A stretch of DNA of 63,389 nt, counting the filler, from Sphacelaria rigidula (Eukaryota), in the NCBI GenBank assembly GCA_964200075.2. It is 3 parts of 3 records of this genome, joined end to end, with 100 filler letters (N's around TTAATTAATTAA, not from the genome) between each part and the next. Parts side by side here need not be neighbours in the genome. Positions count along the whole stretch, not along the records: positions 1 to 21,091 come from CAXNAA020000467.1; 2 more parts are not named here. One strand, written 5' to 3'. The position numbers and the translations under genes were made by a program. Shown piece after piece: positions 1,099-32,524 of the stretch; position 1 is the stretch's first letter, and each line of letters begins with the position of its first letter. The notes beneath the pieces were generated by a model. The model was not told the origin of the DNA, ran no database searches, and was given only the letters and a program-made list of their open reading frames with translations.

Positions 1099-3167
1099 AT
1101 GTACCTTGTTTGATATGCAGCAAGTCAATCTTGCCAAAACACGCAGCGCCTAGCACGTCGATCATCTCCGCCTCGTGGTTAGACATGACATTCGGAACCT
1201 TCTCAATCTGCTTGTTTACCGCGCGATAATTACTCACCAGTCGATAACCGCCCTTCTTCGGCGTCGCCATGGCCGCACTCGCCCACTTTGCCTGTAAGCT
1301 GCGGAAAACGAGTCCAAGCGCCACCAGCGTCGCCATACACCCTGCTAACCACGAGGCCTTTACAGGGAAATACACCCGCGGGCTCGCCTTGACTGCACAA
1401 TCCCCAGGTTTGAATCTCACCTTCAATGGCTCTACACAAGCAGGCGGATCACCGCCCAATGCTCGCCGTAAGCGTTGACACGTCGCCCAACAACCTCCCG
1501 AAGCTTATCAATGCCGCTTGCCGACATACCCTTGTCCGCAGCCGCCTGTACGGCATGATCCAATGCACCACGACGCTCTGCCAGCTCCTCCTCTGGAGTC
1601 ATGTTCATCTCGGGACCTCGCGACATCAATCGCTCAACGGAGGGATCCACAGGCTCCTCTTGCCCACCTGGATCCTGTAACGCCTCAATCGCAATGCTCA
1701 CACGCCTACATTCTCGAAATTCAGGCGTATCTACACCTCTTACCAACGCGTGTCTTGAGCGTGCGCATGCGTCCAGCCCACAATACACATCAATGCCCGT
1801 AGCCTCCAGCGTACCGCTCCCGATGATCACCACATCATCGGCATCTGGCATTACCACACAATGACACGGATCCAGCACCACCGGCCCCCAGCTGGTGTGC
1901 ATAGCGGTGCGCACTAGGCACGTCTCCGACTGCATACTCCGTACATTACCATCAGCTAGTTTCAACGGGTGTGCACGACCTATGCTCGTGACAACTCGCA
2001 CATCAGGGAACATTGCTTGCAACTGGTCCGCCACTTTCTCAGACATGATAGTGATGCAAGCCCCCGAATCCAAAACTGCAGTAACAGGGCAAACGTTCTT
2101 GGCTGTGGAACTAAGAACGGACAAGTCTGCCCGGCAGCATCGCTGCTTGCGATCAACTACCATCCTCTCAGCCTGTAAATCTGCAACCTCAGCGGTGTGC
2201 AGACAACTAACACACCCTCGGCCTGTAAATCTACAACCTCAGCGGTGTGCAGAGCCCGCCATATCGGCGTTGTCTGAGACGTCCACTCCTGAGCCGGTCC
2301 CGACAGCAGATGGGGTTGAGCTGCAGGAGTTGGAGCGGAAGGCTGGGGCGGCACCATGCTGTCCGCACTACTAACACCTCCTTGCGTTCCATCCCCTGGA
2401 AAAATAGCCCGTGTGGGAGCAGGACCTTTACTGCCCCCCCGCTGACCATGAACCTATTGCAGCTGCTGCTGGTGCTGCGGCGGCGGCGGCGGCGACGGCG
2501 GCGACTTTGCTTGCCCACCTGACGCACTCACCGCGGCCGCTGATGTGCTCTGTTTGTTACAGTACTTCTTACAATGGCCCTTATCGCCACCCTCGAAACA
2601 ACCTGCATAGCTCAGACCAGGTTTGTGGGGATTTTTCGAGCTCTTACCGCCACTAACCGCTGCGGCGGCCGCAGCCGCTGCGCCGGCATTCGATGCCAGT
2701 TTTTCGAGCCTCGTGAGCCGCTTTTTTGCCTGACTTGCGGTTGCTGGCGGCGGTGTTTATCAACCACCTCAACAGTCTTCCATTTTTCGGCTAAGTCATG
2801 AGCTACCTCATGAACCACTCTCGGGCTCTCATTCCAGTCCCTTTTCATATAGAGCATATTGAACTATATTCTTGAACTCAGGTGGGGTCAGGCCGGCGCC
2901 AATAGATAGCTCTGGTAATAATGTGTGCTTGACCAGCCTTGAACGTACGGTCAGATTCAAGGAAAACGCACTCCGCACCTACATTTTCCGCGGAGTTCTC
3001 CTGTAATGAACTCCACTGCCCTTCTACTCGACCCATTGCAGTTGGTTCAGACCGTACGGCAAGAACCTTTTTGTTGCCTGCTGCAGCTTCGGAAGGATCA
3101 ATTTCTGTACCGATCCAGCATTTGGCGTGGCGTGTAATCCCTTGCTGCAATTTGTCTTCGTCGAGTG

Positions 3168-3448
3168 TGTAAAGTAGTCCATCTCCAGAACACGTACGTG
3201 CAGGCTTATGATGATCTACAAGTGTAACAATCTGCTGTATACGTTTTCTATTGGTTGACGGGACTTTCGGGTCTGATCGGCAGACTATGTGGATTTGAAC
3301 ATTACATGCTTCACGCATGTGGTTACTTCCGATAGCCAAGGCTGTGTGTTTATGAACAACACCTGTCTTGAAATCTCCAGGCTCTAGTGAGGGAGGAAGC
3401 CCTTGGAGCAATCTTGTCACCTTGTTCTGAGTCCAGGAGGGCTCAATA
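3168..3448 (+). repeat. 5' LTR of A1 (family A)
   Basis: Homologous to 11297-11575, 15407-15688 and 19664-19944. Begins TGT and ends ATA. Confidence 0.9.
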
Positions 3449-4760
3449 ATATACGTTTATGAAGAGGAACCCGCTGGTTTTTAGGAGAGGTTTTTCAGTT
3501 GTGGGCAGCTGCGGAGAAATCATATCATACTTTGTACACACGAGTGTGCACCCTGTAAAGTGAGGGAGCTCGCTGACAAAGGAGAAACGGCTAGGTTGGC
3601 TGGAACTGTTGCGTGCAGCTATGGCAACGCGCAAGAAAGTGGGTGATGGCGATGCAGGCGAAGAGGTGAAGTTGAAGTTTACGGAGCTTATGCCTGCAGG
3701 ATCGCTGAAAGCCCCAGAGTACGGACGGCGTTTGAGCGAAAATGCGTCCCGACGTTTTGATCAGAAATACGTCGAGTATGAAGAGGCGGTCAAGTTGAAC
3801 AACAAGGGACGTAGCATGTAGGCCGTCTTACTGACTGTTACTGAACTGATGCCGAAGCACATTCGTGAGTATCTCTCACGCACGATTTTTGACGGGTCCG
3901 TGCTTGCCGAAGACGATCTCAAGGAGGCAGTAGGCCGACATGCGACATGTTGGCAGGATGAAGAGATTGACCCTTCAGTAGCTGCCGCTGGTGTGCGGAA
4001 AGCGTTGGCGGCCCGCAATGAGTAAACTACAATGGGAAGAGTAGAAGGGCAGTGGATATTTGACATGAGAATGTTTTGCGGAGAACGCTAGCGCCGAGCG
4101 TGCATTCGGCGATATTGCAACTTTCAAACCAGGACCCGCTCAAATCATAACTCGGGAAATGTTGAATGAGCTCACCCCCCCGAATTCAAAACCAAAGTCC
4201 TCAATATGTTGAACATGAAAGGGGGGTGGAAGGAGGACCCTGGGCTTGTGTATACTACGGCTCGGGAAGCAGCGGAGGCATGGAAGACGGTGGAAGCGGT
4301 GGATAAGCAGCGCTATTAGCAGCAGCAGCTGAAACAAAATAGTAGCAGTGGGACTTCCGGAAGCAAGCGCCAACCAAATGATGGAAAAACGGCGAGCAGT
4401 GCAAATGGGACTGCCAGTTCCGGGAAAACCCGAAAACCGGGCCCAAACTATGCAGGATGTTTCATATGTGGAGGCAAGGGCCATTTCCGGAAGGATTGCA
4501 AGCAGCAAGGCCAGGCTGCTGCTACACAAGGTAGTGACGGTGTGCAGACAAAGGCTGGCGACAAGCAGCAACAACAACAGCAAGCAGTGAATTGGTTGCG
4601 GACGTCTCTTCCGCGCCTTGCTGAACTGATGGAGCCACTTCGTCTCCTGCTCGAGGAGCAAATGGTGGGCAACGTGCGCCGTACAAAGCGGGTTGCTTCA
4701 AACAGGACAATCAAGGAGGCGGCGTGGACGTATGAGCGTGCGCAACCTTGGACAGCGGCG

Positions 4761-7700
4761 TGTAGACTTCTGTCGCTCACGATCAGGTTGCCATGTGGAC
4801 TCCTCCCATCACGGGCACATGGACTTCAGCAGCTTTAGTTATTCATATATTAACCTTCTGGATAGTACAGGAGAACAGGACCTCACCCTCTCTCCACCGG
4901 AGTGGCAAAATCAAGCCTACTCGTCATGGAGGTCACCATAACAGAGTCCGGCCATCAGACCCGCAACTCCACCTACAAATGTCCCTAGGTAACAATGGTG
5001 GCTAGACTCTACAGCACCCCCAAAGCTCTCTACCACCAACAAGTAGTTATATCAGAGCTTGACAAACTCAGACATCATTGGTGCCTGATAGTACGTTTCC
5101 TCAAAGATTAGCAATCTCTTCCGCTGCTTTCGACAACAGCTCCATACAAGCTAGCCTCACTTCCGAACAACTCGCAAGAGGTCCCAAGAAAATATCGTCC
5201 ATCATGAACATGCAATCACGCTACTTGCACCACTTCGAGTTACAAAGCGACAGCTAACGCCGAATTCTCGAATGTTCGCCCACAACAAGTTCCTTGACTC
5301 TTCATCGGCTCGAAACCGGAAATGTCAGCAAACGTCAAATTCCAGAGCATTCGTGACTCATCGTCCCTCTCATCCGAGAACAGGTACGTCTCAACATACA
5401 AAATGCACTCTTTGTATGTTCAACACCTGAGCAACGGAGTGCAACAGCCAACTGACACATCATCTTCACGCTAGAAGGAAATATGCACCCAAAACGTCTA
5501 AAACGCACCTGGCCTCTTGCTTCTGCAACGGCGTATAAAACGTATGCATCGCATGCCTCCCCGCCGTCAAAGCTTCAATGCTTCAACTTGCCTTCATTTT
5601 ATCCAGACAATCAAAGGAAAGCCGAGGGTCAAACCGCTTTTCAAAGTCATGCATACTAATCCAACGACGGCGAACGGACCTCGACCTCCGCCATCAATGA
5701 TCACCCCTCGTGAGCTCGTCCTTGAACTCTCGTTTTCGAGCAAATCCCAGACATTTCTATATCTCGTTTGGAACTTGGACCGTCATATCCCATCTGTGTG
5801 CATCAGTCAAAATGTAAAAATGATGAATTCCTCGACACCCTTGCAGTCCACCTGCACCAGTTCTTCGAACAATTGGACGCATCATCCACATGCTCGTTCT
5901 GACATGAACGAAAAACCAACCACGTGATCGTTCAAACACCTGACAATCCATACAAAAACGTGCCACGGTCAAAGATCATTGATGCATGGGCTCATAATGT
6001 CTTTATCTTCAACTACCGGAAGCACTCGCGTCATACCTGCTCTCATACGACGAGCTTGCGCATTTTGTACCTTTCAGCTCATTTTTACGCTAACAGCAGC
6101 AATCCATATATCCTGCAGTCAGTACGTGCAAACCGCACAAAGTTGGTTCGACTGTGTTCCTGCGCGAACAAGATTATACGAGCTTCTCTTCAATTAGCAT
6201 ACAGCAGTATTTTGAAAACTGCCCCACCCTACGTCGTCACCAGATACCATTCATACCAGTACCATTCGAGCAAAAATTCGCACATACCTGCCAAATTTCC
6301 ACTCAGCATATGAAAATCTGTACATGCATGCCAATATTTTACTCAGCACATGCAATGCCACCTTCCTCGCAGCAAACACCATGCATCGTCCGTGCCAACC
6401 AGACCAGCACAACACACACATGCCAAATATCCACGTGTACACCAGAGTTACACCCTGCACACGCGATACGATCATACTCGCTCAACAACCATGTTTGATG
6501 CGCGAACATGACCACAAACCACACAATAACAAGCTGCAACCATTCTCAAAACGATTCGCGAATCCCAGTCATAATGTGTTTCCTCATTCTCAACAAGCAC
6601 TTAATCACCACAGCACTTGCTCCTCAACATCAGTACCCAACTCGACGCTCACCACAACAGCAAACACCTCAGGTAATGCCTTTTTTGTAGTCCTCCAGCC
6701 CGCTTTTGAGAAACAGCAGCACTCCAACCACAACCCCGTGCACAGCGTAGAGCAGCGTTTCCACTCGGGCACTCCCTCCTTGCACCCTCAGTCTAGCTAC
6801 ACCTGGCACCCCCATGGTGTAGCTCAACATGCCTCTAAAAGGTATACTCGCACCGCCAAACCAATGCGATAAATCCTCCGCCCCCGCAGATGCTTGCGCA
6901 TCCACGAACGCTCGTTCTTGAGTCGCTTTTCAGAGGAAACAAGACGCGAAACGGGAACAGCCACACAGTTCCGCACAACAACACCTCCCGATGGCATCAG
7001 GCCATTCTCCTCCAGCACCTGACCGTACAGCGGCAAATACACCGCAGCCAAGGCCGCCAAATACGCCAAACCTGTCCATGCATACAGCAGTGCATACGAC
7101 CACCCCAACACCATGCGACGCTCGTCAAGGCGTGTCCACAGCTACGCGCTGCTCCGGCGGCGATTCCGCCAACCCGGCGTCCACCTGTCCTTCAAGTAGA
7201 CACCCCTGCGAATCATCTGAACGATCTCCCGCCATGTCACTGACGCAGATAGATTCGCCATGAACACGGCAAGCCCCGAGCTCACCCTGCTCGCTCGCCA
7301 TACACGAATAACACCCCCCTGCAGTTGCGAGCATGCAAGGAGTATCTCCAGCTACGTGCTCGTCCGGCGGCAATTCCGCCAACCCGGCATCCACCCGTCC
7401 TTCAAACAGACACCCCTGCGAATCATCTGAACGATCTCCCGCCCTGTCACTGGCGCAGATAGATTCACCATGAGCACGGCAAGCTCCGAGCTCACCCTGC
7501 TCGCTTGCGATACGGGAATAACACCCCCTTGCAGCTTCGAGCATGCAAGGAGTATCTCCAGCTACGCGCTGGTCCGGCGGCAACAAGCAACTGGGACCTC
7601 CGCTCACCAGTACTTGCTCATTGTCCCATGTAGGCCCCGGTCTCTCAAAATCGCCAACAGCAGCAACAGCATCACCCATACTCGCTACAGCCGCCACCTC

Positions 7701-9185
7701 CCGCTCAGCGCACTCTTGAACTGCAATAGCGTCAGCTGAGCGGCCTGCAGTCTGCTCGAGCGGTGGACATATTCGTCCTTTCCAGCAGCAATACCAGCGG
7801 CATCTAAACCAATGCTTACCGTGGTACTTTCGGCGGGCGCGTTCCCATGCCTCCCCGCTTTGACAGACACGTGCTGTGTTTCCTTCCCGCTCTGCACAGA
7901 GGAAACAGCTGCCCTGTATCGTGCTTTAAGACGCGCCCTACCGAATGTACGTTCGGCAGGTGTACTATCGCGCCTGTCCCCTCGGGCAGACACATGCTTT
8001 TCGGCTTTCACATGGCGAGCATCTGCCCTGTATCGTTGTTTCAAACGCGCAGCACCTCCTACTGCACGTTCGGCGGGCAAATACATGCTTCTCGGCTGCC
8101 ACAGTGCAATGCGTCCCACCGGACGGCGCATGCTTGCGCAACGCGAAAAGCAACTGCTCGTCCTCAACATCATCATCATGCTTCAAGAACGTGTCACACA
8201 GACATTTCGCAATATGTTTCGGTATGAGCTCAGAAATTGCTGCCACCTCAAAGAGGTTTGTCCACCGCGCGTCCACCTGATCTACATCTCGCGAATATTG
8301 CTCGTATTTGCGTAAAAACTCGGCCGATTTCTCGCTCGAAAACTTGCGGCCGTAGTACGGCATCTCCAGCGCCAGTACAGGAACAATATACGACCATCGA
8401 CGATGACATATTCCTGCGTCTCATCCATTTCGGTCAGCGGTACAAGTACTCCAGACCGCCGTTTTGAAAATTAAAGTTGCCTCCCACTCACAGGAACAAC
8501 AACTCTCTCCTTACACCGAGACGCGCCGTACCACTTTACAACAACAATGGCCACAGCGCCTCGTCCTCACGCAGGTCTCACCATGAGTTTGAAGTTCTTA
8601 GATTCCTCTTCCTGGCCGTACCTGGCCAGGCGTGGAACACGCAACCCTCGCTGGCTCCACTATTAGGCAGTACGGTAATTGCGCCGCTTTTCTGGAACGC
8701 GCACAGGCTCGCCAGCTGTCGGTCAACCCCCCCGCACCTCTCGCACGAGCGAAACCACAGCCCACCCCAGCACTGCCTCAGAACCTCCTCGGCTCTACTT
8801 CTCCAACTCCTCGTGACGTTAACACGCCTTGAGCTAGTCTTGTTTGCTGCAAACTGATCAGGCCTGCAGACTTCCCTATTTTGAAGTGTCAGCTTTTTTC
8901 AGCGGGTCTACTGCCATCAGCGGACTTAATGAACGTTTATTGTAGACTTCTGTCACTCAAGATCAGATTGCCATGTGGACTCCTCCCATCACAAGCACAT
9001 GGACTTCAGCAGCTGTAGTTATTCATATGTTAACCCTCAGCATAGTACAGGAGAACAGGACCATAGCCTCTCTCCACCAGAGTAGCAAGACCGGGCCTAC
9101 TCGTCATGGAGATCACCATCACAGAGTCTGGCCTTCAGACCCGCAACTAAATGTCCCTAGGTAACAATGGGGGCTAGAGTCTACA
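4761..9185 (-). mobile_element. Non-autonomous gag-only LTR retrotransposon B (TR-GAG/LARD-like), TSD GGCG
   Basis: LTRs 4761-5012 and 8941-9185 (TGTAGA...TCTACA), with GGCG at 4757-4760 and 9186-9189. The host pol peptide WTAA/AQDLVAHAVAL is split at exactly this site. PPT-like tttgggggtgc abuts 5012 on the minus strand. Gag at ~8430-8130; no recognisable RT or RNase H. Confidence 0.9.
7135..7585. repeat. Tandem ~210-bp repeat (about 2 units) inside element B
   Basis: tccggcggc recurs at ~7153, ~7363 and ~7573. The first two units are near-identical over most of their length. Confidence 0.85.
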
Positions 9186-10845
9186 GGCGCAAGATTTGGT
9201 GGCACATGCTGTTGCTCTGTCACATCCCTAGGAGGGCTATGAGATGATGATGTTTCCACACGCGTCGGATCTTTATTGAGGTAGTTTCGTGACCCAGCTA
9301 CCGAGAGCTGAATTGGACCGCGATGTAGCGGTGGAGGCCATGAGTCCTGAGCCCCTGGGATTTCTCAGTGGGACGTTTCGAGGAGCGCAGTTGCGGTGGG
9401 GTACGGACAAGGGAGGATATGCCATCGTGAGTATGTTTCGTAGGTTGGAGTACTTTTTGTGGGGAGGAGTGACCATATTTACGGACCATCGCAATCTCGC
9501 TTTCGTTTTTTTTCTCGAAGCATGCGTGACCACACTGGCGAAAACTGCCGCCCAGCGCCTTGAACAATGGAAGACTGTACTCGGGCAATATGATTACTCA
9601 ATCAGGCATATTTTTGGTGAGCGTAAGTGCTGGGGAGATCTACTGTCCCGGTAGGTGAACTTTCCAGCGGCATCCCTGAGAGCCATCGCTGTTTTTGCAA
9701 TTGGAGAGCCTGGTGAGACGCTACTTTTGAAAGAGGCCGTGCGTGCAGCCGAAGAGCAAGCCCGTGAGGGGTTAGGAGGTATGGTTGGTGGGGCCGAGAC
9801 CTTTACTGCCGCTGTTGGGCGTGTCTTCAAAGACGGTGAGGGTGTGTTTCGCGTGCATGTTGCAGGGAGGGATGTACTGTGGATCCCGCCGGAAGCGAGA
9901 GAACTACACACACGCTTGATGGTATGAGCTTACATGAAAGGGGCTGGTCACCGAGGGGTTGTGGCAACGTTACAGCGCTTACCAGAGTATTGTTGTTGGT
10001 TCCGGATGGAGACTCATGTGACTGAGTTTGTGAAGCAGTGCCTGCACTGTTTGGATTCCAAGGCGGGGCACATGGTCCCGCATCGCTTCGGGGAGATGGT
10101 GCATGGTATGCGCCCAGGGGAGGTGCTGCATTTTGATTTTCTCTACGTTGACGAGAGTGCCCCCCTGGGAAATAGTGGCTTGGACGAAGGATACGGGTTC
10201 AAGTAAATATTAATCATGATGGACGATTTGAGCAACTTCGTGTGGTTGGAGCCTGCGGAGTCTTGTACGGCGGCGACGACGTGCTTGACGAAGACGCTTT
10301 GAGGTGACAGGTGACGTCAATCGTTGAGGCTCGGCGAGAGTTGCACAAGAAGGTGGCGCAGCCTGTCGACAAGAATCGCGATCTACAGAGACGTGTGGCT
10401 AGTAAGGTGAAGATTCCTAACTTTGTGGTGGGCGATAACGTGCTGGCGGCGAGGATGAGGCGTTCGGGAACTACGCCGAAGCTTGTGAGTACGTGGACGG
10501 AGCCTTGGCGGATTGTGACCGCGGAACAACAACATGTGTGCGAGGTGCAGAACATTGTGAATGGCGAGGTACAGGATGTGCATGTCGCCCGCCTTCGATT
10601 TTATGCGGACAAGGAGCTGAAGATTGCGACTGATATTAAGGAAGTGTTCCAGAGTATGCTTTTGCACGAGGCGACTTCGATATGGCGGCTGTTGTCGGAA
10701 TATCTGAGGACGAAGCAGGAGATGGATTTTATGTGCAAGGGGAATGGGTCAGCCTTGGCCAAGATGAAAACTCGTGGGAGCCTCTGGAAAATATTTTGGA
10801 CGGAGCCCCACAATTTGTCAAATCTGAGCTGCGTACGTTGGGACT

Positions 10846-10935
10846 TGTGACGGTTTAAGCGACAACCAACTAGACTACTGACCAGTCAGCGCTGACTGGT
10901 CAGTAGTCTAGTTGGTTGTCTCTTAAACCGTCACA
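10846..10935. mobile_element. 90-bp near-perfect palindrome (mini-MITE) inserted in A1
   Basis: tgtgacggtttaag.gacaaccaactagactactgaccagtcagc|gctgactggtcagtagtctagttggttgtc.cttaaaccgtcaca with one mismatched pair and no loop. GACT on both flanks. Confidence 0.85.
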
Positions 10936-11296
10936 GACTACTTAAAAAAGTGCGAGCACGTTTGCAGGCAAAGTATGGTATGAAGCTTGAGAAATATGAT
11001 GATATCTAATGCTACTGGTTGAGATGGTACTATACTTGGCACGTTCGCTTTTGAGAGAATGCTATGCGTGGAAATTACCGTTGAAGAATGGCCGACTTCC
11101 CTGAGTTCGCTTGAGACATTGTCTGTGAGTTTCGATATTCAGGGTTGTGTACGTTATCATTTCTTTGTGGAACATGACAGTACAAGGTCGTATGTCACTA
11201 CCGGGGGGACAAAGGTAGCATAAACGGGATAGTCGGTGTCTACTGTTTTGTCAAACTCGCGTTCTACTTCGAGAAGTGCGGAGTTTTGGCGGGTGC

Positions 11297-11575
11297 TGTA
11301 GATTAGTCCACCTCCAGTACACGTACGTGCCGGTTCATGATGATATACAAGTGGACAATCTGCTGTAGACGTCTTCTATTAGTTGACGGACTCGCGGGTC
11401 TGATCGGCAGAATATCTGGATTTGAACATCACATGCTTCACGCATGTGGTTACTTCCGATCACGAAGACTGTGTGTTTGTGACTAACAACGGTCTTGAAG
11501 TCTCCAAGCCCTAGTGAGGGAGGAAGCCCTTGGAGCAATCTTGTGACCTTGTTCTGAGTCCAGGAGGGCTCTATA
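11297..11575 (+). repeat. 3' LTR of A1 (family A)
   Basis: Follows a PPT-like tract and is followed by TSD AGTG. Confidence 0.9.
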
Positions 11576-12036
11576 AGTGGCAACCCGTCAAAGATGGTGT
11601 CAGACACGCAGTTCTGGATGTGCTTGGGCACCAACTCTTGCATGGTCAAGAGTGCGCACATAACCGACCGGCCTTTGTTACTCTTCCCCACTGCCTTCTC
11701 ATATTCTCGATACTGTTGGTAAAAGCGTCTGGAAGCTTGTTCACTCAATATTCGCCCATATTCAGGCACTTTGAACGATCCACCCAGAGTCAACTTGGTT
11801 TCTGCAGACTTCACCACATCAACCATCTCGCTGGTGCCCCCTTCCCTTCGCGCTGCCATCCTTCCAACAGCCTCCTGTCACCGCAGTCGCCTTGGACTCG
11901 TGTGGCCTGCGCCTCTCTCTCCGCCGCTTTCTCCTCCCCCTGTTATTCGGAGAGAGAGCGACTTTGGTTTGTAGCGGTCGGGTGCGACTTCAGAAACCTA
12001 ATCCAGAAACGACAAGTTTCCTGGATAAACGTCTAT

Positions 12037-12311
12037 TGTGAACCTGTCTGGAATCAGAACAAGGTCACAGTGCTGCGTTAGAGGCTTCCTCCCTGTCACG
12101 GGCTCCAGAGACTTTAATTTAAGACTCAAGCCTTTATACAAGCAGCAGTATTTCGTTGACCAGAAGTGACCCACCCTTCTTTGCTCCCCCCACAAACACA
12201 ATATGTTATGCATTTCATAATCATCCTCCAAACCGTTGTCACACGATCCAAACTGATATCCATATGCTACCGAACTCCTCATGCTGGAGGTGGTACTGTA
12301 CTTTATCCACA
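12037..12311 (-). repeat. 5' LTR of C1 (family C)
   Basis: Reverse-complement homolog of 12747-13013; TGT...CACA termini. Confidence 0.85.
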
Positions 12312-13013
12312 GATATAAAGGAGGTGTTCCAGCATGCATATGTCCAAGGAGAGTTCGAGATGGAGGCAATCGCCGGGATATCTGAGGCTCACGAAGAATT
12401 TGGCTACGAAGTGCGTGTGGAATGGGTAGGTTTCGACGAGGGCGAAAGTTCATGGGACCCGCTGGATGTTATTTGGAGAGGAGCGTCGTAGTTTGTACAA
12501 TCTGCGAAAGTTGAGGCTGAATAAGCAGGTACGGTACGGGAGCGTCTGAAGATTAAGTATGGTATCAAGATATGACTGGTCTTCTGGGTACTTTGTGGAT
12601 GGATTGTATCATGCGATTGGTGTTCGTCGAGTATACCGCTTGGTTATCGTATGATTGTTCTTTGTTGCCATCCGAGATTTGTTGTCGGTGCCTACTGATG
12701 ATCAAGCTCGTTATCTACCGTTGAGTAAGACGTAGCTTGGGGGTGCTGTAGAGAAAGTACAGTACCACCTGTAGCATGAGGAGTACGGTAGCATATGGAT
12801 ATCAGTTTGGACCGTGTGACAACGATTGGAGGATGATGATTGAATGCGCAACATATTGTGTTTGTGAGGGGAACAACGAAGGGTCACTTCTGGTTAACCC
12901 AAGACTGCTGTTTATATAACTGCTTGAGTCTTGAAGTCTCTGGAGCCTGTGACAGGGAGGAAGCCTCTGGAGCGCAGCACTGTAACCTTGTCGAGGTTCC
13001 ACACAGGCTCACA
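12312..13013 (+). mobile_element. 3' end of Ty3/Gypsy element C2: chromodomain, 3' UTR, PPT, 3' LTR (12747-13013)
   Basis: Peptide DIKEVFQHAYVQGEFEMEAIAGISEAHEEFGYEVRVEWVGFDEGESSWDPL (chromodomain pattern), then ttgggggtgc followed by TGTAGAG...CTCACA. Confidence 0.85.
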
Positions 13014-16000
13014 AGCTGTACAAGACTCGATGGGCTCCAACCACGCGAACTTGCATAGATCATTCATCATTACAAATATGCACTTGTACCTGTCGCCTTC
13101 ATCCAGGCCGCTCTCGCCCAGCGGACCACTTTCGCCAACGTACAGATAATCAAAATGCATCACCTCACCGGGCCGTGTGCCACGCACTACCTCTCCTAGT
13201 GGCCGCGGGACCGTCTTACCCGCTTTCGAGCTCACACAATGCAAGCATTTCCTCACTGAATCTGTCACATGAGCTTCCATCTGAAACCAACAGCAATACT
13301 CTTGCAGCCGCTGCAGTGTCGCCAGAACACCCCGATGGCCTCTTTCATTTGAGTACACACCATCAAGCGTGTTTGCAGCTCTTTTGCTTACGGCGGGATC
13401 CACAACACATTCCCCCCTGCTACATGCACGTGAAATAAACCCCCCACCGTCTTTCGAACTCGCCGCCCAACAGCTGCTCCAAAAGTAGGGGCTCCAGCAT
13501 CCATCACTTCGAACCCGGCTTGAGCCTGCTCTTGGGCACTCACGAATAGCGTTCTTCGACGGCGGCGTTTCATCAGGCTGACCGCTCGCGAAGACGGCCG
13601 CAGCACACGCAGACACCGCCGGAATGTTGACCCACCTTGATCATAAATCTCCCCAGCAGTTGCGCCCACCAGCAATGTGTCTGATGGAGTGATAGTACTG
13701 CCCGAGCACAGCCTTCCATTGCTCGGACCTGATCGCACAGCCTTCCTTGTCCACCGTAGCCCACCAAACCTGTGCTCCACAAAACGTTGCGCTAAGAAAC
13801 CCCATGGGCTCATATCTTCCACCGCCAATGTACCACCCAGCTCATCCTCCGGTACCTGCGTAAGAAAACTTCCCCAGTGTAGATCCGATGCGTCTGGAAA
13901 CATGAGAGCCGCATACCCCCTGCTTGGGATATGACACAGCGACAGCATGCGCCACCAAATCTTGCGCCTCGTGCCACGCCTGAGCACGCCTGGACGTCCA
14001 TGCCGACTCCTCGATTGTCCGGTTTGACGCCACTCGCTTGGTACGGCGCACGTTTCTCTGCATGTATTCCTTCAGTAATATTTGCAGCGGCTCCACCGCC
14101 TTCACCAAACGCGGCAGGGGTGTTCTCAGCCAGTTTACCGCCTACAGGAACTGCATAAGCTCACCTGCTGTGCGCGGGAGCCAAAAGGTAGGCCAGTCCG
14201 CTCAGTCTCTCGCGGTCATAAGCCACTTGACCACCTGAAAAGACCTTTCCGCACCACGTGATCTATGTGTCGTACAACATGCACTTGTGCGCAGCCGCAA
14301 AAAAACCAGCATCCTCGAAACGGTCCAAAATCTCGTCTAGTGTACACAACAGATCACCCTCATCTTTACCCCACCACAAGATATCACCCACCCATACTTT
14401 GCATTGAAGTCCGGTCAATAATCCTGACATGATGCCTTGAAAATACCCCGTCGCATTCAACACCCCTTGCGGCACCCGTGTGGGGGTGAACAGGCCTTCA
14501 GGAGTCGCGATCGTGAAACTTTCTCGTGCATCAGCCGCCCATGGCATCTGCCAGTAACCCTGCAGCAAGTCAATCTTGCCAAAACACGCAGCGCCTAGCA
14601 GGTCGATCATCTCGGCCTCGTGGTTAGACATGACATTCGGAACCTTCTCAATCTGCTTGTTGACCGCGTGATAGCCACTCACCAGTCGATAACCGCCCTT
14701 CTTCGGCGTCGCCATGGTCGCACTCGCCCACACCGCCTGTAAACTGCGGAAGACGAGCCCAAGCGCCACCAGCGTCGCCATACACCCTGTTAACCACGCG
14801 GCTTTTACAGGGGAATACACCCGCGGGCTCGCCTTCACTGCTTTAGCCCCAGGTTTGAATCTCACCCTCAGTGGCTCTACACGCAGGCGCAGTGCTCGCC
14901 GAAAAGCGTTGACACGTCGCCCAACAACCTCCCGAAGCTGATCACCGCCGCTTGCCGACATACCCTCGTCCGCAGCCGCCTGTACGGCATGATCCAATGC
15001 AACACAATGCTTTGCCAGCTCCTCCTGTGGAGCCATGTTCATCTCGGGACCACGCGACATCAATCACTCAACGGAGGAATCCACAGGCTCCTCTTGTCCA
15101 CCTGGATCCTGTAACGCCTAAATCACAATGCTCACACGCCTACATTCTCGGAATTCAGGCGTATCTACACCTCTTACCAACGCGTGTCTTGAGCGCGCGC
15201 ATGCGTCTAGCCCACTGTAGACGTCAATGCCCATGGCCTACAGCGTACCGCTCCCGATGATCACCACATCATCGGCACCTGGCATCACCACACAATGACA
15301 CGGATCCAATACCACCGGCCCCCAGCTGATGTGCAGAGCGATGGGCACTAGGCACGTCTCCGACTACATACTCCGTACATTACCATCAGCTAGTTTCACC
15401 GGGTGTTGTAGAGTAGTCCACCTCCAGTACACGTACGTGCAGGTTTATGATGATATACAAGTGTAACAATCTGCTGTAGGCGTTTTCTATATTGGTTGAC
15501 AGACTTGCGGGTCTGTTCGGCAGAATATCTGGATTTGAACATCACATGCTTCACGCATGTGGTTACTTCCGATAACGAAGGCTGTGTCTTTATCAATAAC
15601 AACTGTCTTGAAGTCTCCAGGCCCTAGTGAGGGAGGAAGCCCTTGGAGCAATCTTGTGACCTTGTCCTGAGTCCACGAGGGCTCTATAATAAACGTTTAT
15701 GAAGAGGAACCCGCTGGTTTCTGTACGAGGGTTTTTAGCTGTGGGCAGCAGCGGAGAAATTATATCAAAATTTGTACACAGAAGTGTGCACTCTGTAAAG
15801 TTAGGGAGCTGGTTGGCAACGAAGAGACGGCTAAGTTGGCTGGAACTGTTACGTGCAGCTATGGCAACGCGCAAGAAAGTGGGTGATGGCGATGCAGCCC
15901 AAGAGGTGAAGTTTAAGTTTACTAAGCTTATGCCTGCAGGATCACTGAAAGCCCCAGAGTACGGACGGCATTTGAGCGAAAATGCGTCCCGACATTTCTA

Positions 16001-19000
16001 TCAGAAATACGTCGAGTATGAAGGGGCGGTCAAAATGAACAACAAAGGACGTAGCATGCAGGCCGTCTTACTGACTGTTGCTGAACTGGTGCCGAAGACA
16101 TCCGTGCGTGTTTCTCACGCGCGATCTTTGATGGATCCGTGCTTGACGAAGACGATCTCAAGGTGGCAGTAGGCCACCATGTGACACGTTGGCAGGATGA
16201 GGAGATTGATCCTTCAGTTGCTGTTGGTTGTGTGCAGAAAGCGTTGGCGGCCCGCAACGCGCAAATTACAATGGGAAGAGTAGAAGGGCTGTGGGGTGCC
16301 CTGGAGAATTGTTTTGCGGAGAATACTAGCGCCGAGCGTGCGTTCCGCGATGATGCCGATTTCAAACCAGGACCCGCTCAAATCATAACTCGGGAAAGGT
16401 TGAATGGACCGACCCCCCCCCCCGCATTCAAAACTAAAGTCCTCAACATGTTGAACATGAAAGGGGGGTGGAAGGAGGACCCTGGGCTTGTGTATCACAC
16501 GGCTCGGGAAGCAGCGGAGGCATGGAAAACGGTGGAAGCAGCGGATAAGCAGCGCCGTCAGCAGCCGCAGCTGAAACAAAATGGTAGCAGTGGGACTTCC
16601 GGAAGCAAGCGCCAACTAAATGGTGGAAAAACGGCAAGCAGTGCAAATGGGACTGCCAGTGCCGGGAAAACCCGAAAACCGGGCCCACACAATGCAGGAT
16701 GCTTCATATGTGGAAATAAGGGCCATTTCCGGAAGGATTGCAAGCAGCAAGGCCAGGCAGGTGCTACACAACGCAGTGACGGTGGGCAAACGAAGGCTGG
16801 CGACAAGCAGCAGCAACAACAGCAGCTGTCGTAGGGCCCTGCACAGGTGCCTCGCGGAGGGGGCACGAGTCCCGCTCCTGAAAGGGCTGTCTTTTCAGCC
16901 GATGGACAACGTGCTCCCAGCGGGGGGGCGACGTTGCCACCAGAACCGGTCGCTTCTGGTGGTGGCGTGCAGCAGACCATCTCATCGCAGTCGTTCCCGG
17001 GTTCGAACTCTGCGGCGGTGCCAGCATGGCGATCGCTCAAAGCGGGTGAGGTGTCAGATTTTCAATCTGAGGGTCTGCAAGTAGATCACAAGGAAAGGTG
17101 GTGTCTTGCCGATTTGTCTGTCCTGAGTACAGGGGCAAAGGGTGTTTGTCCGGTCATGGCTATTTTAGATTCAGGATCTGGACTTACGACCATGTCAGCT
17201 GGTGTGGCGGCGAAATTGCAAGCCATGGTGCCAGATGTCCAAGTGGTGAACAGTTGGTGAAATTGGCAAATGGCAATGTTGAGCGCGTGAAGTAGAAACC
17301 TTGCCCTGTCCGCATCGCTTTACACACCAGCTGGGGACCGGTTGTGCTGGACCCATGCTCCTATGCGGTCATGCCGGATACAGATGATGTGATCACCATG
17401 GGGAGATCTAAGCTGGAGGCGCTGGGCATTGACGTATGCAGTAGTTTAGGTACCTGAGCACGTGCGAGAAACACTTCGGTGCGAGGTGTAAACACACCTG
17501 ATTTTACGGACTGTCGGCGTGTCAGTACGGCGGTTGACGCCTTACAGCAACCAGGAGATCGGGCGGAGCCCGTTTATTCCTCAGTCGAGCGGTTGTTGTC
17601 GAGAAGTCCGGCGATGAGCATATCCCCGGAACAAGAGCTTTTTGAGCTTGATGTTGCGCCGGAGGAGGCAGTACAAGCCGCCGCAGGTAACGGCATATTG
17701 GATAGCGACGTGAGCCATATTCGTGAGCCTGTACGGAAGAGAGCGAGCATTTTTAGGCGAGTGCTGCATGGTTATCCGCCTGATCGCGTCGAGCCCTTGA
17801 ACGTGAAATTCAAACCTGCTGCTGTGGAGGCAAAGGCTCGGCCGAGGGCGTACTTTCCGGTCAGGATGGCGTGGTTGGCACGCTGTATCGCAACATTGGT
17901 GGCGCTCGGGCTCGTGTACTGCAGTTTGCAGGTAAAGTGGGCGAGAGCGGCTATTGCAACGCTCAAGAAGTCCTGTTTTCGCTGGATGAGTGCATACAAG
18001 GCGGGGGAGGAAGTTTCCCGTCACCACAAGGAGGTGGTGCATGGTGCCCGCCCAGGGACGGAGTTTCATTTCAATTTTCTCAGTGTTGGCGAGGGTGGTC
18101 CGCTGGGAGATAATGGCTTGGACAAAGGAGATCGGTCCAAGTACATATTGGTAAGGATGGATGACCCGGGCGACTTCGTGCGGTTGGAGCCCACGGAGTC
18201 TTGTACGGTACCAACGACGGCGAAGCATCTGTTGACGTGGTGCAAAGCGCTGGGACCGCAGGAGGGATGGGTCAGCGATACGGTATCGCAATATAATAAT
18301 TGTGTGGTGAGAGTGCTCAAGAAGGTGCTGATGGGTCGCAGATTCGTGGTGGCCAACTCGTAGTTGTCACATCGTGAACGTGAGCGAATGGTGCGTGACA
18401 TTGTTCGTGCCTTGAAGGTCATAATTCAGAGAGGAAGACTCGGTGCCAAGGCCTGGGTGGGTTTGGTACCTTCCGTGCAGTGGGTATTGCACACTGGTTT
18501 TCGGGACAGCTGTGAAAGCTGTAGTTGCATCTATTGGAGTGGAAATGCTACTCTACGGTGTGGACGAGATTGTAGCCGGAGAGCTGCTGTTTCTCAGGAG
18601 GAGCGCAGGAGAATTACAAGGCAGGCAATACCTTCGGTGCTCGATGTTGCGGTGAATGCCGGGTTGGGTGATGTTAAGGAGCAAGTACAAGTGAAATTGC
18701 TTGTTGAGAATGAGGAAGCACATTGTGACTTTTATACCTGAATCATTTTGTGGACGATTGTAGGTGGTGGTGGTATGGTTCCTGGATCTGTGTCTTGTGT
18801 TGCGCTAGTTGGCACGCATGATACATGGTGGTTTCTGCGAAGAAGCTGCTGAGTGAAATATGAGCATGCAGGTGTGACTGATGTCCATGGTGTCTGATGA
18901 AGAGTCAGAGTGAGGCAGTTTCCAATACACTGCTGTGTGCTGAATGAAATAAAGCTCTTGTATTATCGTTCGCGCAAAAAGTGGAATCATCTTTGTGCGG

Positions 19001-20765
19001 TTTGCAGAAACTGACTGTAGGAGATGGTGATTGCTGCTGCTGGCGTGAAAATGAGCGGAAACTACGAAATGCGTCGTAGGCTTGTATGTGAACAAGTATA
19101 ACGTGAGTATTTCCAGAGGTTGACGAAAAACAAATCGTACGCGAATACAGTGATTTCTTACTGTGAAACATCTTTGATGGCTTGTCATGTGTTTGGATAA
19201 GCGCATAGATGGTGTTTCGCATCTGCAAAACGGAGAATGTGGATGGTGTGCCCATTTTTCTGGAAGGAGCACCGCATATTTGTTCTGAGCTACTTTAGTT
19301 GGAACTGAGTCAAATGGTGCGGGCACGGTTGTAGGCAAAGTAAGGTATCAACCTTTGAGTGCATGGTATGGTTGAATGCTACGGTTCGAAATGGTATTTT
19401 CCTCGGCGCGTTTGCTTTGTGTGAGCATGCCACGACTGGAAATTACCGTTGAATAAGTTATTGACGTCAGTAAATTCGATTGAGACGCTGTGTTCAAGTG
19501 TCGTTGTTCAGCGCTTTGTGAATGATAATTTTCTTTGTGAACCTGACATAGCATGGTCATGTGTCACCAACAGGCGGACAAAGGTAGCATGAGCGTGTTT
19601 GTCGGTATCTACTGTTTATCAAACTCGCTTTCTACTTCGAGTAGTGTGGAGTTTTGGGGGTGCTGTAGAGTAATCCACCTCCAGTACACGTACGTGCAGG
19701 TTCATGATGATATACAAGTGGAACAATCTGCTGCAGGCATCTTCGATTGGTTGACGGACTTGCGGGTCTGATCGGTAGACTCTGTGAATTTGAATATCAC
19801 ATGCTTAACGCATGTGGTTACTTCCGATAACGAAGGCTGTGTGTTCATGAATAACAACTGTCATGAAGTCTCCAGGCCCGTGTGAGGGAGGAAGCCCTTG
19901 GAGCAAATCTTGTGACTTTTTTCTGAGTCCAGGAGGGCTCCATAGTGTGCACGAGCCATGCGCGTGACAACTGGCACATCAGGGAACACTGCTTGCGATC
20001 GGTCCGCCACTTTTTCAGACATGATAGTGATGCCAGCTCCTGAATCCAAAACGCCAGTAATAGGGCAAACGTTCTTGGCTGTGGAACCAGGAACAGACAA
20101 GTGTGCCCGGCAGCATCGCTGCTTGCGGTCAACTACCATACCCTCAGCCTGTATATCTGCAACCTCAGCGGTGTGAAGACCCCGCAATACCGGCGTTGTC
20201 TGAGACGTCCACTCCTGAGCCGGTCCCGCCGGCAGTTGGGGTTGAGCTGCAGGAGCTGGCGCGGAAGGCTGGGGCGGCACCATGCTATCCGCACTACTAG
20301 CACCCCCCTGCGTTCCATGCCCTGGGAAAACAGCCCGTGTGGGAACAGGATCATTACTGTCCCCCCGCTGACCATGAACCTGTTGCAGCTGCTGCTGGTG
20401 CTGCGGCGGCGACGGCGACGACTTTGCTTGCCCACCTGACGCACTCACCGCGACCGCAGGTGTGCTCTGTTTGTTACAGCTCTTCTTGTAGTGGCCCTTA
20501 TCGCCACACTCCAAAACAACCTGCATAGCTCGGACCAGGTTTGTGGGGCTTTTTCCAGTTCTTACCGCCACTACCCGCTGCGGCGGCCGCAGCCGCTGCG
20601 CCGGCATTCGATGCCAGTTTTTCGAGCCTTGTGGGCCGCTTTTTTCATAAGTTGCGGATGCTGCCGGCGGTGTTTGTCAACCTCCTCAACAGTCTTCCAT
20701 TTTTCCGCCATGTCATGAGCTACCCCACGAACCACTCTCAGGCTCTCTTTCCAGTCCCTTTTCAT
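13014..20765 (-). mobile_element. Decayed Ty3/Gypsy element C3 (gag end, protease, RT, RNase H, integrase), interrupted by A2
   Basis: ECGDKGHYKKSC and GVLDSGA at 19945-20600. RT FGKIDLLQGYWQMP/TPTRVPQG at 14263-15063. RNase H FPDASDLHWG at ~13880. Integrase GHRG..CLHC..HFDYL at 13014-13340. Highly similar to C1. Confidence 0.9.
15407..19944 (+). mobile_element. Ty3/Gypsy element A2, internally deleted, TSD GTGT
   Basis: LTRs 15407-15688 and 19664-19944, with GTGT at 15403-15406 and 19945-19948. The paralogous empty site reads cgggtgtgcacg at ~1966. Gag from 15861 with CFICGNKGHFRKDC, protease ILDSGS at ~17165, RT start fused to integrase core at ~18000, PPT-like ttttgggggtgc. Confidence 0.92.
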
Positions 20766-25600: not shown

Positions 25601-28600
25601 CGCACCGGGGTGACATTTGTGGTGCGCGCATGACATGCTGTTAGATTCTTCTGTGGCCTTGCGCCGTAAAAATAGTTGCCGTCGGTCTTTGCCATTTCCT
25701 TCTTCTTTTTTTTGTCAGGGCATTGAAATAATGAGGGGTGGCCGGGGGACGGAACGGGAGGGTTCTCACAGGGTTGATATTGCAAGCCACACCCTGGACA
25801 GTAGATATCAATCAAATGGAATGTACGGCGTAGAGTAGTGGACAGTCTAACTATTGAGCGGGGTTCTGGGGGTTTCCTCGCGTGATGATCTTTGATATAA
25901 GTCGAAACTGCTAGAGTCGGTAGATTTTGGTACAAAAAACACAGTGCCCAAGTCAGTGCTAGTTGGTTTTATCGGGCGAAACGAGTGAATACCCCGTTCA
26001 TCCTGAGGGTGTTTTTGACCGTGAAACACAGTTTTTCGGCTCTACTGCAATGAGCAGGCAAAATTCCGAAAGAAGAAAACTGTACATCTTGGGGCTGGAA
26101 TGTCGCAGGACCCCCGAAGAACGGTCAGCCACGTGATTCACAACACTGTATTGACTTCAGATGGTTTTTTACGTGCAATGTAGAGCGGATACAAATATCT
26201 TCAGATCCCCCATGTGATGAGCGGTGGCAAGCCAAAAGAGCCCAAGAAAGTCGCCACTCACGAAGAAATCACAAAATGCCTCAAAATGTCTAGTTAGACC
26301 GCCCACTACTGTAAGATGTCATCAGTTGTTTTCTTCACTACCCTGTTCCATCATTTGGTCTTCATCCTTTGTCAGCAAATTTCACCTTATCCGGACCATC
26401 GTCGTGCAGCTGCCCTGAAGTTTGACTGCCCGTTTCGAACGTGAAAAGATACCCTGTACCCAGCTTGGTGTTTTTTACACTGAGAGGGTACACTTCCCCT
26501 CATGTAGGTCGAGTACAACGCTACAGCTCCGTGTCGCCTTGCACGCCTTAATCGATACGTGGTGCGTATCCTAAACCAACACGTTTGATCGTGTTGGTAC
26601 ATTCGGAAACATGAGCCAGAAGGGCTGTATGATCGAGCTCACTGTTGGTAGCTGCTGTTGACGAAATTCGTCCGAGATGATTTTCGGGTTTGTGTCCCGT
26701 GTTTTTCGCTGAACCGCTGCACCCGTGGATCATCCATATGTTGGTTTGAAAGCGCAGTTTGAAGACGTCGTGTTGGTGTGTTGGAAATGTCTGCGTACAT
26801 ACTAGTGATTACCTCAACCCGGTATCAAATCATAGTAGAGTTCGAATCTCACGTCACCATATTCAGACTGGCGTACTTCAAGCAATATTCCCGCAGTATC
26901 CTCCCTCATGTCAACCTTTTGATTGTTTTCTTGTTTGGGCACATTTTCCCTCATAGCTCTGCACTGACCACGTCTGTTTGAAATATTTTTGCACCAAAGT
27001 TCCCGTCAGATTGCGGGCTTTCAGGGGGATATGACAGCCGATTCGGACGATTTGACCGTCTTGGTGTAAATCACGAAAAAAAACGTTGCTCCCACAACAA
27101 ATATCCGTTCCTAATCTCACGAACGTGTTGTTTGTTCGGGATATTATATCAGAACATGCAACAAACAGCTTCTTTCGGACCATGTCGATAGGCTCCATGT
27201 GCATTTTACCGTTGTGGTCGTTGGGGAAGTGCTAAGTACGATGAAAAAATTTACCTTAGTTTCCGACGTTACTACCAGCAATAGTTGCAAGAGCCACAAA
27301 GAAATTATCTTCGAAAAAGTCCTTTGAACGGCGATTCTCCCCTGCAGTGTCAGTCTACCAAAAAAATTAGGTCGCAGCTTGCCGAGAATGCTGCAGCAGT
27401 ATTTTAAAAATGGCATCAGAGGAGTCTCTTAAAATCGAAGGGCGGAATCATCGCCCGCCATCACTTTGCTCATCGTTCGATGTGAGGGGTCCGTGAATCA
27501 CTGATTGCAACCTCCATGAATACTCCCCCGAAAGGCTACTCACTTGTCCGACGTCAGTGCTGGTTCGCTGCTGATTTCATCCGAAGTCTGATCTGGCAAA
27601 TAACGAGTGATGATTTCCGATTCAGCTCACGGTGGGTTTTGCCTACTTTGTGTATCACCGGGGAGCCGAGCCGGATCATCATGCCCGATTTGTGAGCCTC
27701 TTCGGAAACTGCTCCCACCATGCCTCTCATATCCTGGTTTTGAAGTGTATGAAGTCACTGAAACCGACCAAAAACCCGTGCTTCATGTATCTGACCAAAA
27801 CATTTGCGTGAATCGTTCTCTTGCTCGGCAGCACGAATTCTTCCTCAGAGACAAGCCGCACCTCCTCGCCGAAATCCGCCGCGCCACGCACTACGGAGCA
27901 ACCCCGGAAAAGCAGGAGGTGGACGATCTCCGCTCCGAGGTTGGCTCGCTGCGCTCCCAGGTGGTGGACATGGACGGTCGGATCGACGCACTCTCCAAGA
28001 TGGTGGATCGCTTGCTCGAGGCCGGCGCTGCCGGCGGCGGTAAGGTCACTCCGATTCCTCCCCTCGAAAATTGGGCTAAGAAGCGCCGTCTCGACGGAGA
28101 GTTGGCGGGCGCGGCCGACACGATGAAGCCGGAATTGGCTCCCACCGCAGGCCAATCCCGTAGCGATAGTGCGGTGGGGATAGATGCGGCTGGATTCGCC
28201 CAGGTGAAACCGGAGGTGAACGCACGGGAGACGGGGACGAGTGTAGCCGAGGGCGCCCCCTGTAGTGATGCATCTCCGGAAGGGAGCAATGGTGTTATTA
28301 GTTCGGCAGGAGTCAAGACCGAGCTCACGGAGGAACCGGAGTACAAGTTCGCCGCCCAGGTGGAATCGTTACCAGGCGACGTTGAGGGGGACATAAGCGG
28401 TAGCCCGGCTGGTGGCGATGGGATGATTATCGGCGGTGGGGCCCTCTGCCGAGATACGTCTTTCATCCGCAACCTCGACAACATGAGCATCGGCTCTGTG
28501 TCTTCGCTCGCGCTGGATATGATTGACCTGGGCCCAAGCGATGGAGGCAGCGATGGCGGCGATCAGGAGGCACTGGCGCCAACAAGCGTGGAGGAGGACA

Positions 28601-32105: not shown

Positions 32106-32524
32106 AACCTTTTGATTGTTTTCTTGTTTGGGCACATTTTCCCTCATAGCTCTGCACTGACCACGTCTGTTTGAAATATTTTTGCACCAAAGTTCCCGTC
32201 AGATTGCGGGCTTTCAGGGGGATATGACAGCCGATTCGGACGATTTGACCGTCTTGGTGTAAATCACGAAAAAAAAACGTTGCTCCCACAACAAATATCC
32301 GTTCCTAATCTCACGAACGTGTTGTTTGTTCGGGATATTATATCAGAACATGCAACAAACAGCTTCTTTCGGATCATGTCGATAGGCTCCATGTGCACTT
32401 TACCGTTGTGGTCTTTGGGGAAGTGCTAAGAACGATGAAAAAATTTAGCTTGGTTTCCGACGTTACTATCGGCAATAGTTGCAAGAGCCACGAAGAAATT
32501 ATCTTCGAAAATGACTTTGAACGA
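32106..32524 (+). repeat. ~415-bp dispersed repeat, copy 2
   Basis: Near-identical to 26913-27330. Confidence 0.9.

Follow-up and report, generated by a model that had tools for sequence, protein, structure and literature searches.

A palindromic 12-mer at the primer-binding position of chromodomain-type Ty3/gypsy elements in Sphacelaria rigidula, and a tentative model of priming between paired genomic RNAs

The start of minus-strand DNA synthesis is the most stereotyped step in the replication of retroviruses and long terminal repeat (LTR) retrotransposons. To our knowledge, two ways of starting are established, priming by a host tRNA, used whole or as a half, and self-priming of the Tf1 kind; the GalEa and Skipper elements are orphan cases without a mechanism. 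A 63,389-base stretch of DNA from the alga Sphacelaria rigidula (assembly GCA_964200075.2), analysed here as a whole and referred to as the window, raises the question of how a further group of elements begins to copy itself. The window holds four LTR retrotransposons, A1, A2, B and C1, which are chromodomain-type Ty3/gypsy elements of one lineage. Where their primer-binding site (PBS) is expected, they carry a 12-nucleotide (nt) palindrome or a close variant of it.

We delimited the four elements by self-comparison of the window, by reading their junctions, and by tblastn with two full-length relatives (Table 1). The consensus of the four 12-mers, ATAAACGTTTAT, is a perfect 12-nt palindrome, which by simple arithmetic is expected of 1 in 4096 random 12-mers. 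A preliminary description of this stretch had given the positions, strands and sequences of the four sites, with each variant a single substitution away from the palindrome, and direct reading confirmed all of this. With at most one mismatch allowed, ATAAACGTTTAT has four matches in the window against 0.12 expected, a count that none of 100 dinucleotide shuffles reached. The 12-mer begins at the first base after the 5' LTR in all four elements, and the four LTR/internal junctions all read (C/T)A-ATA.ACGTT.AT, with the hyphen marking the edge of the LTR. This abutment had also been described before, and in A1, A2 and B the edge is now fixed by target-site duplications (TSDs); in C1, the end of the LTR was placed by aligning it with the 3' LTR of C3, a further family-C element.

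A palindrome reads alike on both strands, and the orientation of each element therefore had to be checked against its coding region. By tblastn, gag lies downstream of the 12-mer on the same strand in every element, which places the site at the PBS position and not at that of the polypurine tract. The 3' boundary of an LTR is the first base copied from the primer. Thus, where TSDs fix that boundary, the 3' end of the primer must pair at base 1 of the 12-mer, or at base 3 if integrase trims two nucleotides. Based upon its position, we conclude that the 12-mer is very probably the minus-strand priming site, the equivalent of a PBS, of this lineage. Together with the G that follows, the final two bases of the 12-mer make an ATG, which was considered as a start-codon signal (15699-15860 and 3459-3620) and rejected: in A2 it opens a frame of 54 codons that joins gag, whereas in A1 a stop interrupts this frame, and the ATG is missing from B and C. 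The upstream open reading frame (ORF) of A2 is probably a chance one.

We then aligned 220 nt around each of the four junctions, giving 264 columns. Ten of the 12 columns of the motif are invariant, the best of any 12-column window in the alignment, compared with 25 of the 70 columns upstream and 10 of the 70 downstream. The three substitutions among 48 positions (6%) agree with neutral decay, given the 11-13% divergence of the paired LTRs, so that the motif was probably exact, or almost exact, in every element at the time of its insertion. The same figures could be read to mean that the 12-mer has no special function and is an ancestral motif that is palindromic by chance, since the families also have their U5 region, LTR ends and polypurine tract in common, as shared descent would predict, and the decay of the motif is no slower than neutral. 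Yet the flanks have fallen to 37-69% identity between families while the 12-mer holds its invariant columns, a chance palindrome would be a 1 in 4096 event, and some primer site must occupy this position. We regard an absence of function as very improbable.

How much weight this conservation bears depends on how independent the families are. The preliminary description held that the LTRs and leaders are otherwise very different, and this was overstated. The LTR start TGTAGAG is common to the families (TGTGGAT in C1), the 25 invariant columns upstream fall within the last ~70 nt of the LTR, and families A, B and C share a U5 block, GGGAGGAAGCC...CTTGTYCTGA. A polypurine tract, TTGGGGGTGC, with the consensus TTGG(G/C)GGTGC, precedes all four 3' LTRs of these families; in it, three non-purine-tract bases (TGC) separate the run of G from the start of the LTR. 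Because U5, LTR termini and polypurine tract are all shared, the conservation across A, B and C is conservation within a lineage, and the "three families" are one lineage with common cis signals, not the three independent witnesses that had been supposed.

Does a tRNA pair with this site? The 12-mer contains no TGG, and none is found at any of the four junctions, as had been claimed in arguing that the site departs from a canonical PBS. The nearest TGG lies 15-24 nt downstream, at places that differ between families, and it cannot be the PBS because the LTR boundary excludes a primer site that distant. No other conserved PBS candidate was found in the 70 alignment columns that follow the 12-mer. 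So far as their sequence tells, DNA copying in these elements probably begins without the usual kind of tRNA primer, which is rare. A polypyrimidine stretch of the Skipper type is likewise not seen, the 12-mer being made up of six purines and six pyrimidines.

A host RNA could still pair with the site by way of an internal stretch or of a 3' end made by processing, for example a 5' tRNA half that ends in the anticodon loop, or another small RNA, in which case the palindrome would be incidental. We compared the complement of the 12-mer with a standard tRNA in 65 registers, using 15 invariant positions of tRNAs and the stem pairs covered. Fourteen of the 65 internal registers break no invariant position and no covered stem pair; in three of them (22-33, 24-35 and 25-36), the segment ends inside the anticodon loop, as a primer of this kind would. 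One sequence common to several families is also what a trans-acting host primer would lead one to expect, and non-TGG half-tRNA sites of ~11-12 nt abutting the LTR are established (PMC6317226, PMC5445492). On the other side, a perfect 12-nt palindrome would arise once per 4096 random primer segments, a cytosolic tRNA stem would have to be very AU-rich to supply the segment, and none of the permitted registers includes the CCA end. ARAGORN found no tRNA gene in the window, and there was no match to an Rfam family in positions 1-24000 at E<=1, which says little about a primer encoded elsewhere. Taken together, we consider a host-RNA primer less likely than not, though nearly as probable as the model favoured below.

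Alternatively, the elements could prime themselves in cis as Tf1/sushi elements do, the first ~11 nt of the transcript folding back on the 12-mer and being cut off as primer. These are chromodomain-type gypsy elements with an LTR-abutting site that lacks TGG, as in Tf1 (PMC6317226, PMC5006619). In each of the eight LTR copies, we took the best ungapped complement to the consensus 12-mer, G-U pairs allowed, and compared it with 1000 dinucleotide shuffles. The 5' LTR of A2 was the sole copy above its shuffles (P=0.032), with 10 consecutive pairs at 15476-15485, two of them G-U, in GTAGGCGTTT, which lies ~25 nt past the TATA-like GATATACAA. This complement is degraded in the other three family-A copies, of which the 3' LTR of A1 keeps a run of eight consecutive pairs at the corresponding place. 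In the remaining seven of the eight copies, including both B and both C copies, the complement was no better than in shuffles (P>=0.31), and B and C have no counterpart at the shared position; the earlier claim that the LTRs hold no conserved complement, and that family B holds none, thus stands. In family C, the TATAAA box points to a transcription start close to the conserved, GC-rich GGGAGGAAGCC block, and this block has no complementarity to the 12-mer. Moreover, self-priming in cis requires neither a sequence conserved between families nor a palindrome, and we judge it quite unlikely here. Whole-element scans also returned runs of 10-11 pairs at about +1300 to +1450 in A1, A2 and C1, which we set aside as being at chance level and at non-homologous coding positions.

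The palindrome might instead mainly serve another symmetric role, as an RNA dimerisation or packaging signal or as a DNA site for a dimeric factor, with priming at this place by something unrecognised. Dimer initiation sites are typically palindromic, as are the sites of dimeric DNA-binding proteins, and ACGT-core palindromes are typical bZIP sites. The predicted structure of the leader would suit such a role as well: in the RNAalifold consensus of the four leaders, the 12-mer is unpaired between two small helices, and by single-sequence partition functions it is, on average, unpaired with a probability of 0.58-0.87 in each of the four leaders (rank 3-34 of 231 windows), to which its AU-richness contributes. 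Just 3' of the 12-mer, hairpins of 7-8 bp that do not involve the 12-mer itself are predicted in families A and C. A1 retains this hairpin through C-to-T changes that yield G-U pairs, and B has no clear counterpart. However, a regulatory or packaging site need not start exactly at the first base after the LTR in four of four elements, and no other conserved PBS candidate follows that could take over priming. Retroviral dimer sites, furthermore, occupy hairpin loops and occur in addition to a PBS (PMC5445492). We therefore regard a purely different symmetric role as improbable, more so than self-priming in cis.

The site must bind a primer, it matches no tRNA 3' end, it has no evident partner in cis, and its symmetry has a chance of 1 in 4096. 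On these grounds, we favour the simplest model that makes use of the symmetry, namely that the 12-mer is a non-tRNA priming site acting through palindrome pairing of two genomic RNAs, to which we assign a probability of roughly 0.35. All of its steps we infer. Two packaged genomic RNAs would anneal through the palindrome, forming a duplex of 12 bp with an energy of about -10 kcal/mol. The RNase H of the element would then cut both RNAs at the 3' limit of the palindrome, in the manner of Tf1 RNase H acting on the folded-back 5' end, and each 3'-OH so released would prime the copying of U5 and R on the partner RNA. Once RNase H had removed the copied U5-R, each strong-stop DNA would retain an RNA primer of 12 nt, comparable to the 11-nt self-primer of Tf1. 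A change on one side of the palindrome would disrupt the pairing twice, which would explain a fixed motif amid diverging flanks.

Predicted energies are partly in line with pairing of two RNAs. The consensus 12-mer forms a homodimer of 12 bp at -10.1 kcal/mol and no stable hairpin, and 1.95% of 2000 shuffles of the same composition reach this energy. The C1 variant remains fully paired through G-U, at -10.3 kcal/mol. Several observations weigh against the pairing of two genomic RNAs. The A1 and B variants no longer pair well with themselves (-3.5 and -4.9 kcal/mol), the 12-mer duplex is short and AU-rich, and, as described above, 14 of 65 internal tRNA registers are permitted. The palindrome is known from only four copies, all of them old (paired LTRs 87-89% identical), defective and from one lineage, which therefore offer no independent support for it, and common descent and enzymes alone may account for its conservation over the three families. 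It would also weaken the model if ATAAACGTTCAT were the consensus of family B.

A palindrome in place of a PBS has a precedent in the fungal GalEa elements of the Ty1/copia superfamily. Directly after their 5' LTR lies a conserved 9-bp sequence, the Conserved Hairpin Site CHSeq1, that is palindromic once the last base of the LTR is included, and the two forms that are common, CTGATCAGT and CTAATTAGT, are changed at symmetric positions, with the palindrome preserved (Donnart et al. 2017, PMC5445492). No tRNA or U5 complement to that palindrome was reported, and its authors fit no model but discuss Tf1 priming and dimer initiation sites (PMC5445492). Like CHSeq1, the 12-mer takes the place of the PBS next to the 5' LTR as a palindrome that is short and strongly conserved, has no evident complement in U5 and does not match a tRNA 3' end; in GalEa, the motif is kept between distant families (PMC5445492). 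The two also differ in several respects. GalEa is a copia element of ascomycetes, whereas the present elements are chromodomain-type gypsy elements of an alga with integrase after reverse transcriptase; the GalEa palindrome takes in the last LTR base besides its 9 nt, whereas the 12 nt here are wholly internal to the element; and the TSD is 5 bp there and 4 bp here, with unrelated sequences. In GalEa, the first motif makes a hairpin by pairing with another, inverse-complementary one (CHSeq2) that lies 12-41 bp downstream, but we found no run of seven or more pairs with the 12-mer in the leaders of A2, A1, B or C1.

Other non-canonical systems share part of this picture. In Tf1/sushi self-priming, the first 11 nt of the transcript are complementary in cis to the site, and an element-RNA primer is freed by RNase H (PMC6317226, PMC5006619, citing Levin 1995; Lin and Levin 1997). 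The present elements resemble these in being gypsy-type with a chromodomain, in the 11-12-nt non-TGG site abutting the LTR, and in the element-RNA primer that we propose, but Tf1 requires the cis complement that seven of the eight LTR copies here do not show above chance, and Tf1-type sites are described as family-specific and non-palindromic (PMC5445492). Half-tRNA or internal-tRNA sites are known from copia, from Osser, Bryco and Gymco-II (half tRNA-Met), from Bianca (half tRNA-Ile) and from FunCo1 (internal tRNA-Lys) (PMC6317226, PMC5445492). These too are short, LTR-adjacent and without TGG, and are common to several families because the primer is a host RNA; in plants, however, they are described for Ty1/copia only (PMC6317226), and they leave the palindromy unexplained. 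That plant survey found 2% half-tRNA sites and 12% predicted self-priming; the self-priming cases cluster in the TAR lineage and in the Tcn1 clade, which is related to Tf1/sushi (PMC6317226). Skipper chromoviruses of Dictyostelium have a polypyrimidine stretch in place of a PBS, likewise with no LTR complement (PMC5006619), and that degenerate tract differs from the mixed-base palindrome seen here. Similar features were noted in bivalve TRIM elements (PMC6934838).

Thus, a palindrome at the PBS position is already known from GalEa, although such a site is not described for this clade or with this motif. A literature search on the motif gave, among the matches listed, only unrelated primers and constructs, and a search for PBS types of brown-algal elements, those of Ectocarpus included, gave no description, although the supplementary per-element PBS tables of PMC6317226 and PMC5445492 may hold further non-canonical cases. 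In a paper on the oomycete elements Chronos and Archon, the term PBS has 0 occurrences.

We also looked for relatives with their 5' ends. A metagenome scan gave only two loci at 21-24% identity, a genome scan gave two truncated contigs, L003 and L004, without the 5' region, and a viral scan gave none; four viral contigs that matched the pattern TTGGGGGTGCTGTAGAG were taken as chance matches. The full-length relatives P0002, P0008, P0013 and others are known as proteins only. L003 and the protein P0010 are close polyprotein relatives on short contigs in bacterial metagenome-assembled genomes labelled Robiginitomaculum, Myxococcota and Marinobacter, and most likely represent eukaryotic contamination of these bins. 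In the sequencing runs of the host, the lineage is hugely abundant, the two largest of four runs giving 9156 and 6841 contig pieces over 7.5 kb. Among the 40 listed of 1457 differing positions in the run contigs, none lies inside a 12-mer, a sample that does not show conservation. Run contigs over 8800-16300 have joints near the 12-mers, for example from 11563 to 8927 with 9 letters between, from 11896 to 8940, and from 11576 to 15739; given without strand, these are ambiguous, and may represent either family members that have lost the priming site by deletion or junctions of inverted LTRs.

The assignment of the elements to the chromodomain-type Ty3/gypsy group rests on several lines of evidence. 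The relatives P0008 and P0002 are colinear with C1, D, A1 and A2 by tblastn, in the domain order gag(CCHC)-PR-RT-RNase H-IN, with integrase (IN) after reverse transcriptase (RT) and PR denoting the protease, and ORFs of the window match the Pfam families zf-CCHC, aspartyl protease, RVT_1 and Integrase_H2C2. P0008 has all of these domains and a weak Chromo match (20.1 bits against a cut-off of 25.1), PF00385 is listed among the precomputed domains of P0007 and P0019, and the window copies match the C-terminal chromodomain region of the relatives, but with stop codons. The best named relative is an Ectocarpus protein at 51% identity, and the sequencing runs that contain this DNA carry algal labels, which makes a stramenopile alga the likely host. 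The LTR pairs are direct repeats of 245-282 bp with short inverted termini (TGTAGAG...CTCTACA in B), and a sensitive blastn of the window found no LTR copies besides the eight of A, B and C. An uninterrupted paralogous empty site that matches the A2 insertion was read at 1969-1972.

All four family-A LTR copies end in ATA and not in the canonical CA (3446-3448, 11574-11576, 15686-15688 and 19942-19944), while those of B and C end in ACA. Because TSDs fix the LTR ends, this ATA belongs to the integrated element, and a TA terminus is apparently accepted by the integrase of the lineage. Large stretches are deleted from the interior of A1 and A2, and the polyprotein match of B is confined to gag residues 21-99; both A and B give the impression of C-type relatives, deleted or non-autonomous, that would rely on C-type enzymes. 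The gag of C1 runs from 11799 to 11584 and resumes beyond the A1 insertion at 3165-1088, on the minus strand.

Table 1. Elements, 12-mers and associated features of the window, in window coordinates (minus-strand features that are read in element orientation run from the higher to the lower number).
Feature	Strand	Position	Sequence	Remarks
A1 element	+	5' LTR 3168-3448; 3' LTR 11297-11576	TSD AGTG	TSD at 3164-3167 and 11577-11580; holds B
A2 element	+	5' LTR 15407-15688; 3' LTR 19664-19944	TSD GTGT; 5' LTR TGTAGAG...CTCTATA	TSD at 15403-15406 and 19945-19948
B element	-	5' LTR 8941-9185; 3' LTR 4761-5013	TSD CGCC; 5' LTR TGTAGAC...GTCTACA	TSD at 9186-9189 and 4757-4760; nested in A1
C1 element	-	5' LTR 12037-12311	LTR end TTCACA	TATAAA box ~100 nt before LTR end; no 3' LTR within the window
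C3 element (family C)	+	3' LTR 12747-13014		Chromodomain-region match 12303-12572 and polypurine tract; nothing else left
Further family-C element	-	20765-19945, then 15406-13015		Split by A2
A2 12-mer	+	15689-15700	ATAAACGTTTAT	Perfect palindrome, PBS position
A1 12-mer	+	3449-3460	ATATACGTTTAT	Position 4 A>T
B 12-mer	-	8929-8940	ATAAACGTTCAT	Position 10 T>C
C1 12-mer	-	12025-12036	ATAGACGTTTAT	Position 4 A>G; as RNA still fully self-pairing via G-U
Predicted hairpin, family A	+	15705-15722	AGGAACC-CGCT-GGTTTCT	Just 3' of the 12-mer; minimum free energy structure
Analogous predicted hairpin, family C	-	12024-12001	CCAGGAAAC...GTTTCTGG	
Nominal cis complement, A2 5' LTR	+	15476-15487	GTAGGCGTTT	
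A2 gag	+	15861-16834	Protein starts MATRKK...	Zinc knuckle in ORF 16085-16834; sets element orientation
A2 polypurine tract	+	19647-19663	GGAGTTTTGGGGGTGC	Before 3' LTR
A1 polypurine tract	+	11280-11296	GGAGTTTTGGCGGGTGC	Before 3' LTR
B polypurine tract	-	5030-5014	GAGAGCTTTGGGGGTGC	Before 3' LTR
C3 polypurine tract	+	12734-12746	AGCTTGGGGGTGC	Before 3' LTR

Positions 1-21000 are a deep nest of this one lineage, with B inside A1, A1 inside C1 and A2 inside another C-type copy. A C-type 3' end sits within the integrase of the C-type copy that also holds A2, and the 5' LTR of C1 directly adjoins the chromodomain region of one further copy. Such nesting fits chromodomain-directed insertion into pre-existing repeats. 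The non-coding body of B-type elements contains tandem repeats at 7126-7583 and 371-712 (2 x 210 bp and 3 x 114 bp). Elsewhere in the window, two 419-bp direct repeats that are 96.9% identical (26913-27330 and 32106-32523) lie around ~4.8 kb of sequence with an ORF of 540 aa at 27604-29223 that has no Pfam match. We rejected this pair as LTRs of the present kind, since it has no TG...CA ends and no gypsy polyprotein similarity.

What these elements may add to the biology of LTR retrotransposons follows from four decayed copies in one window. It is possible, but on balance we doubt, that they represent a third mode of starting reverse transcription among LTR retroelements, in which paired genomic RNAs prime each other, dimerisation and priming are one event, and GalEa is an independent, convergent case. 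If two genomes do pair through the palindrome, RNA dimerisation would be linked to priming. A clean 12-nt palindrome at the priming position of an abundant lineage makes the idea of a palindrome instead of a PBS testable in a second, unrelated superfamily. In stramenopile genomes, LTR annotation pipelines that demand a tRNA-complementary PBS would miss such elements or place them in the wrong orientation.

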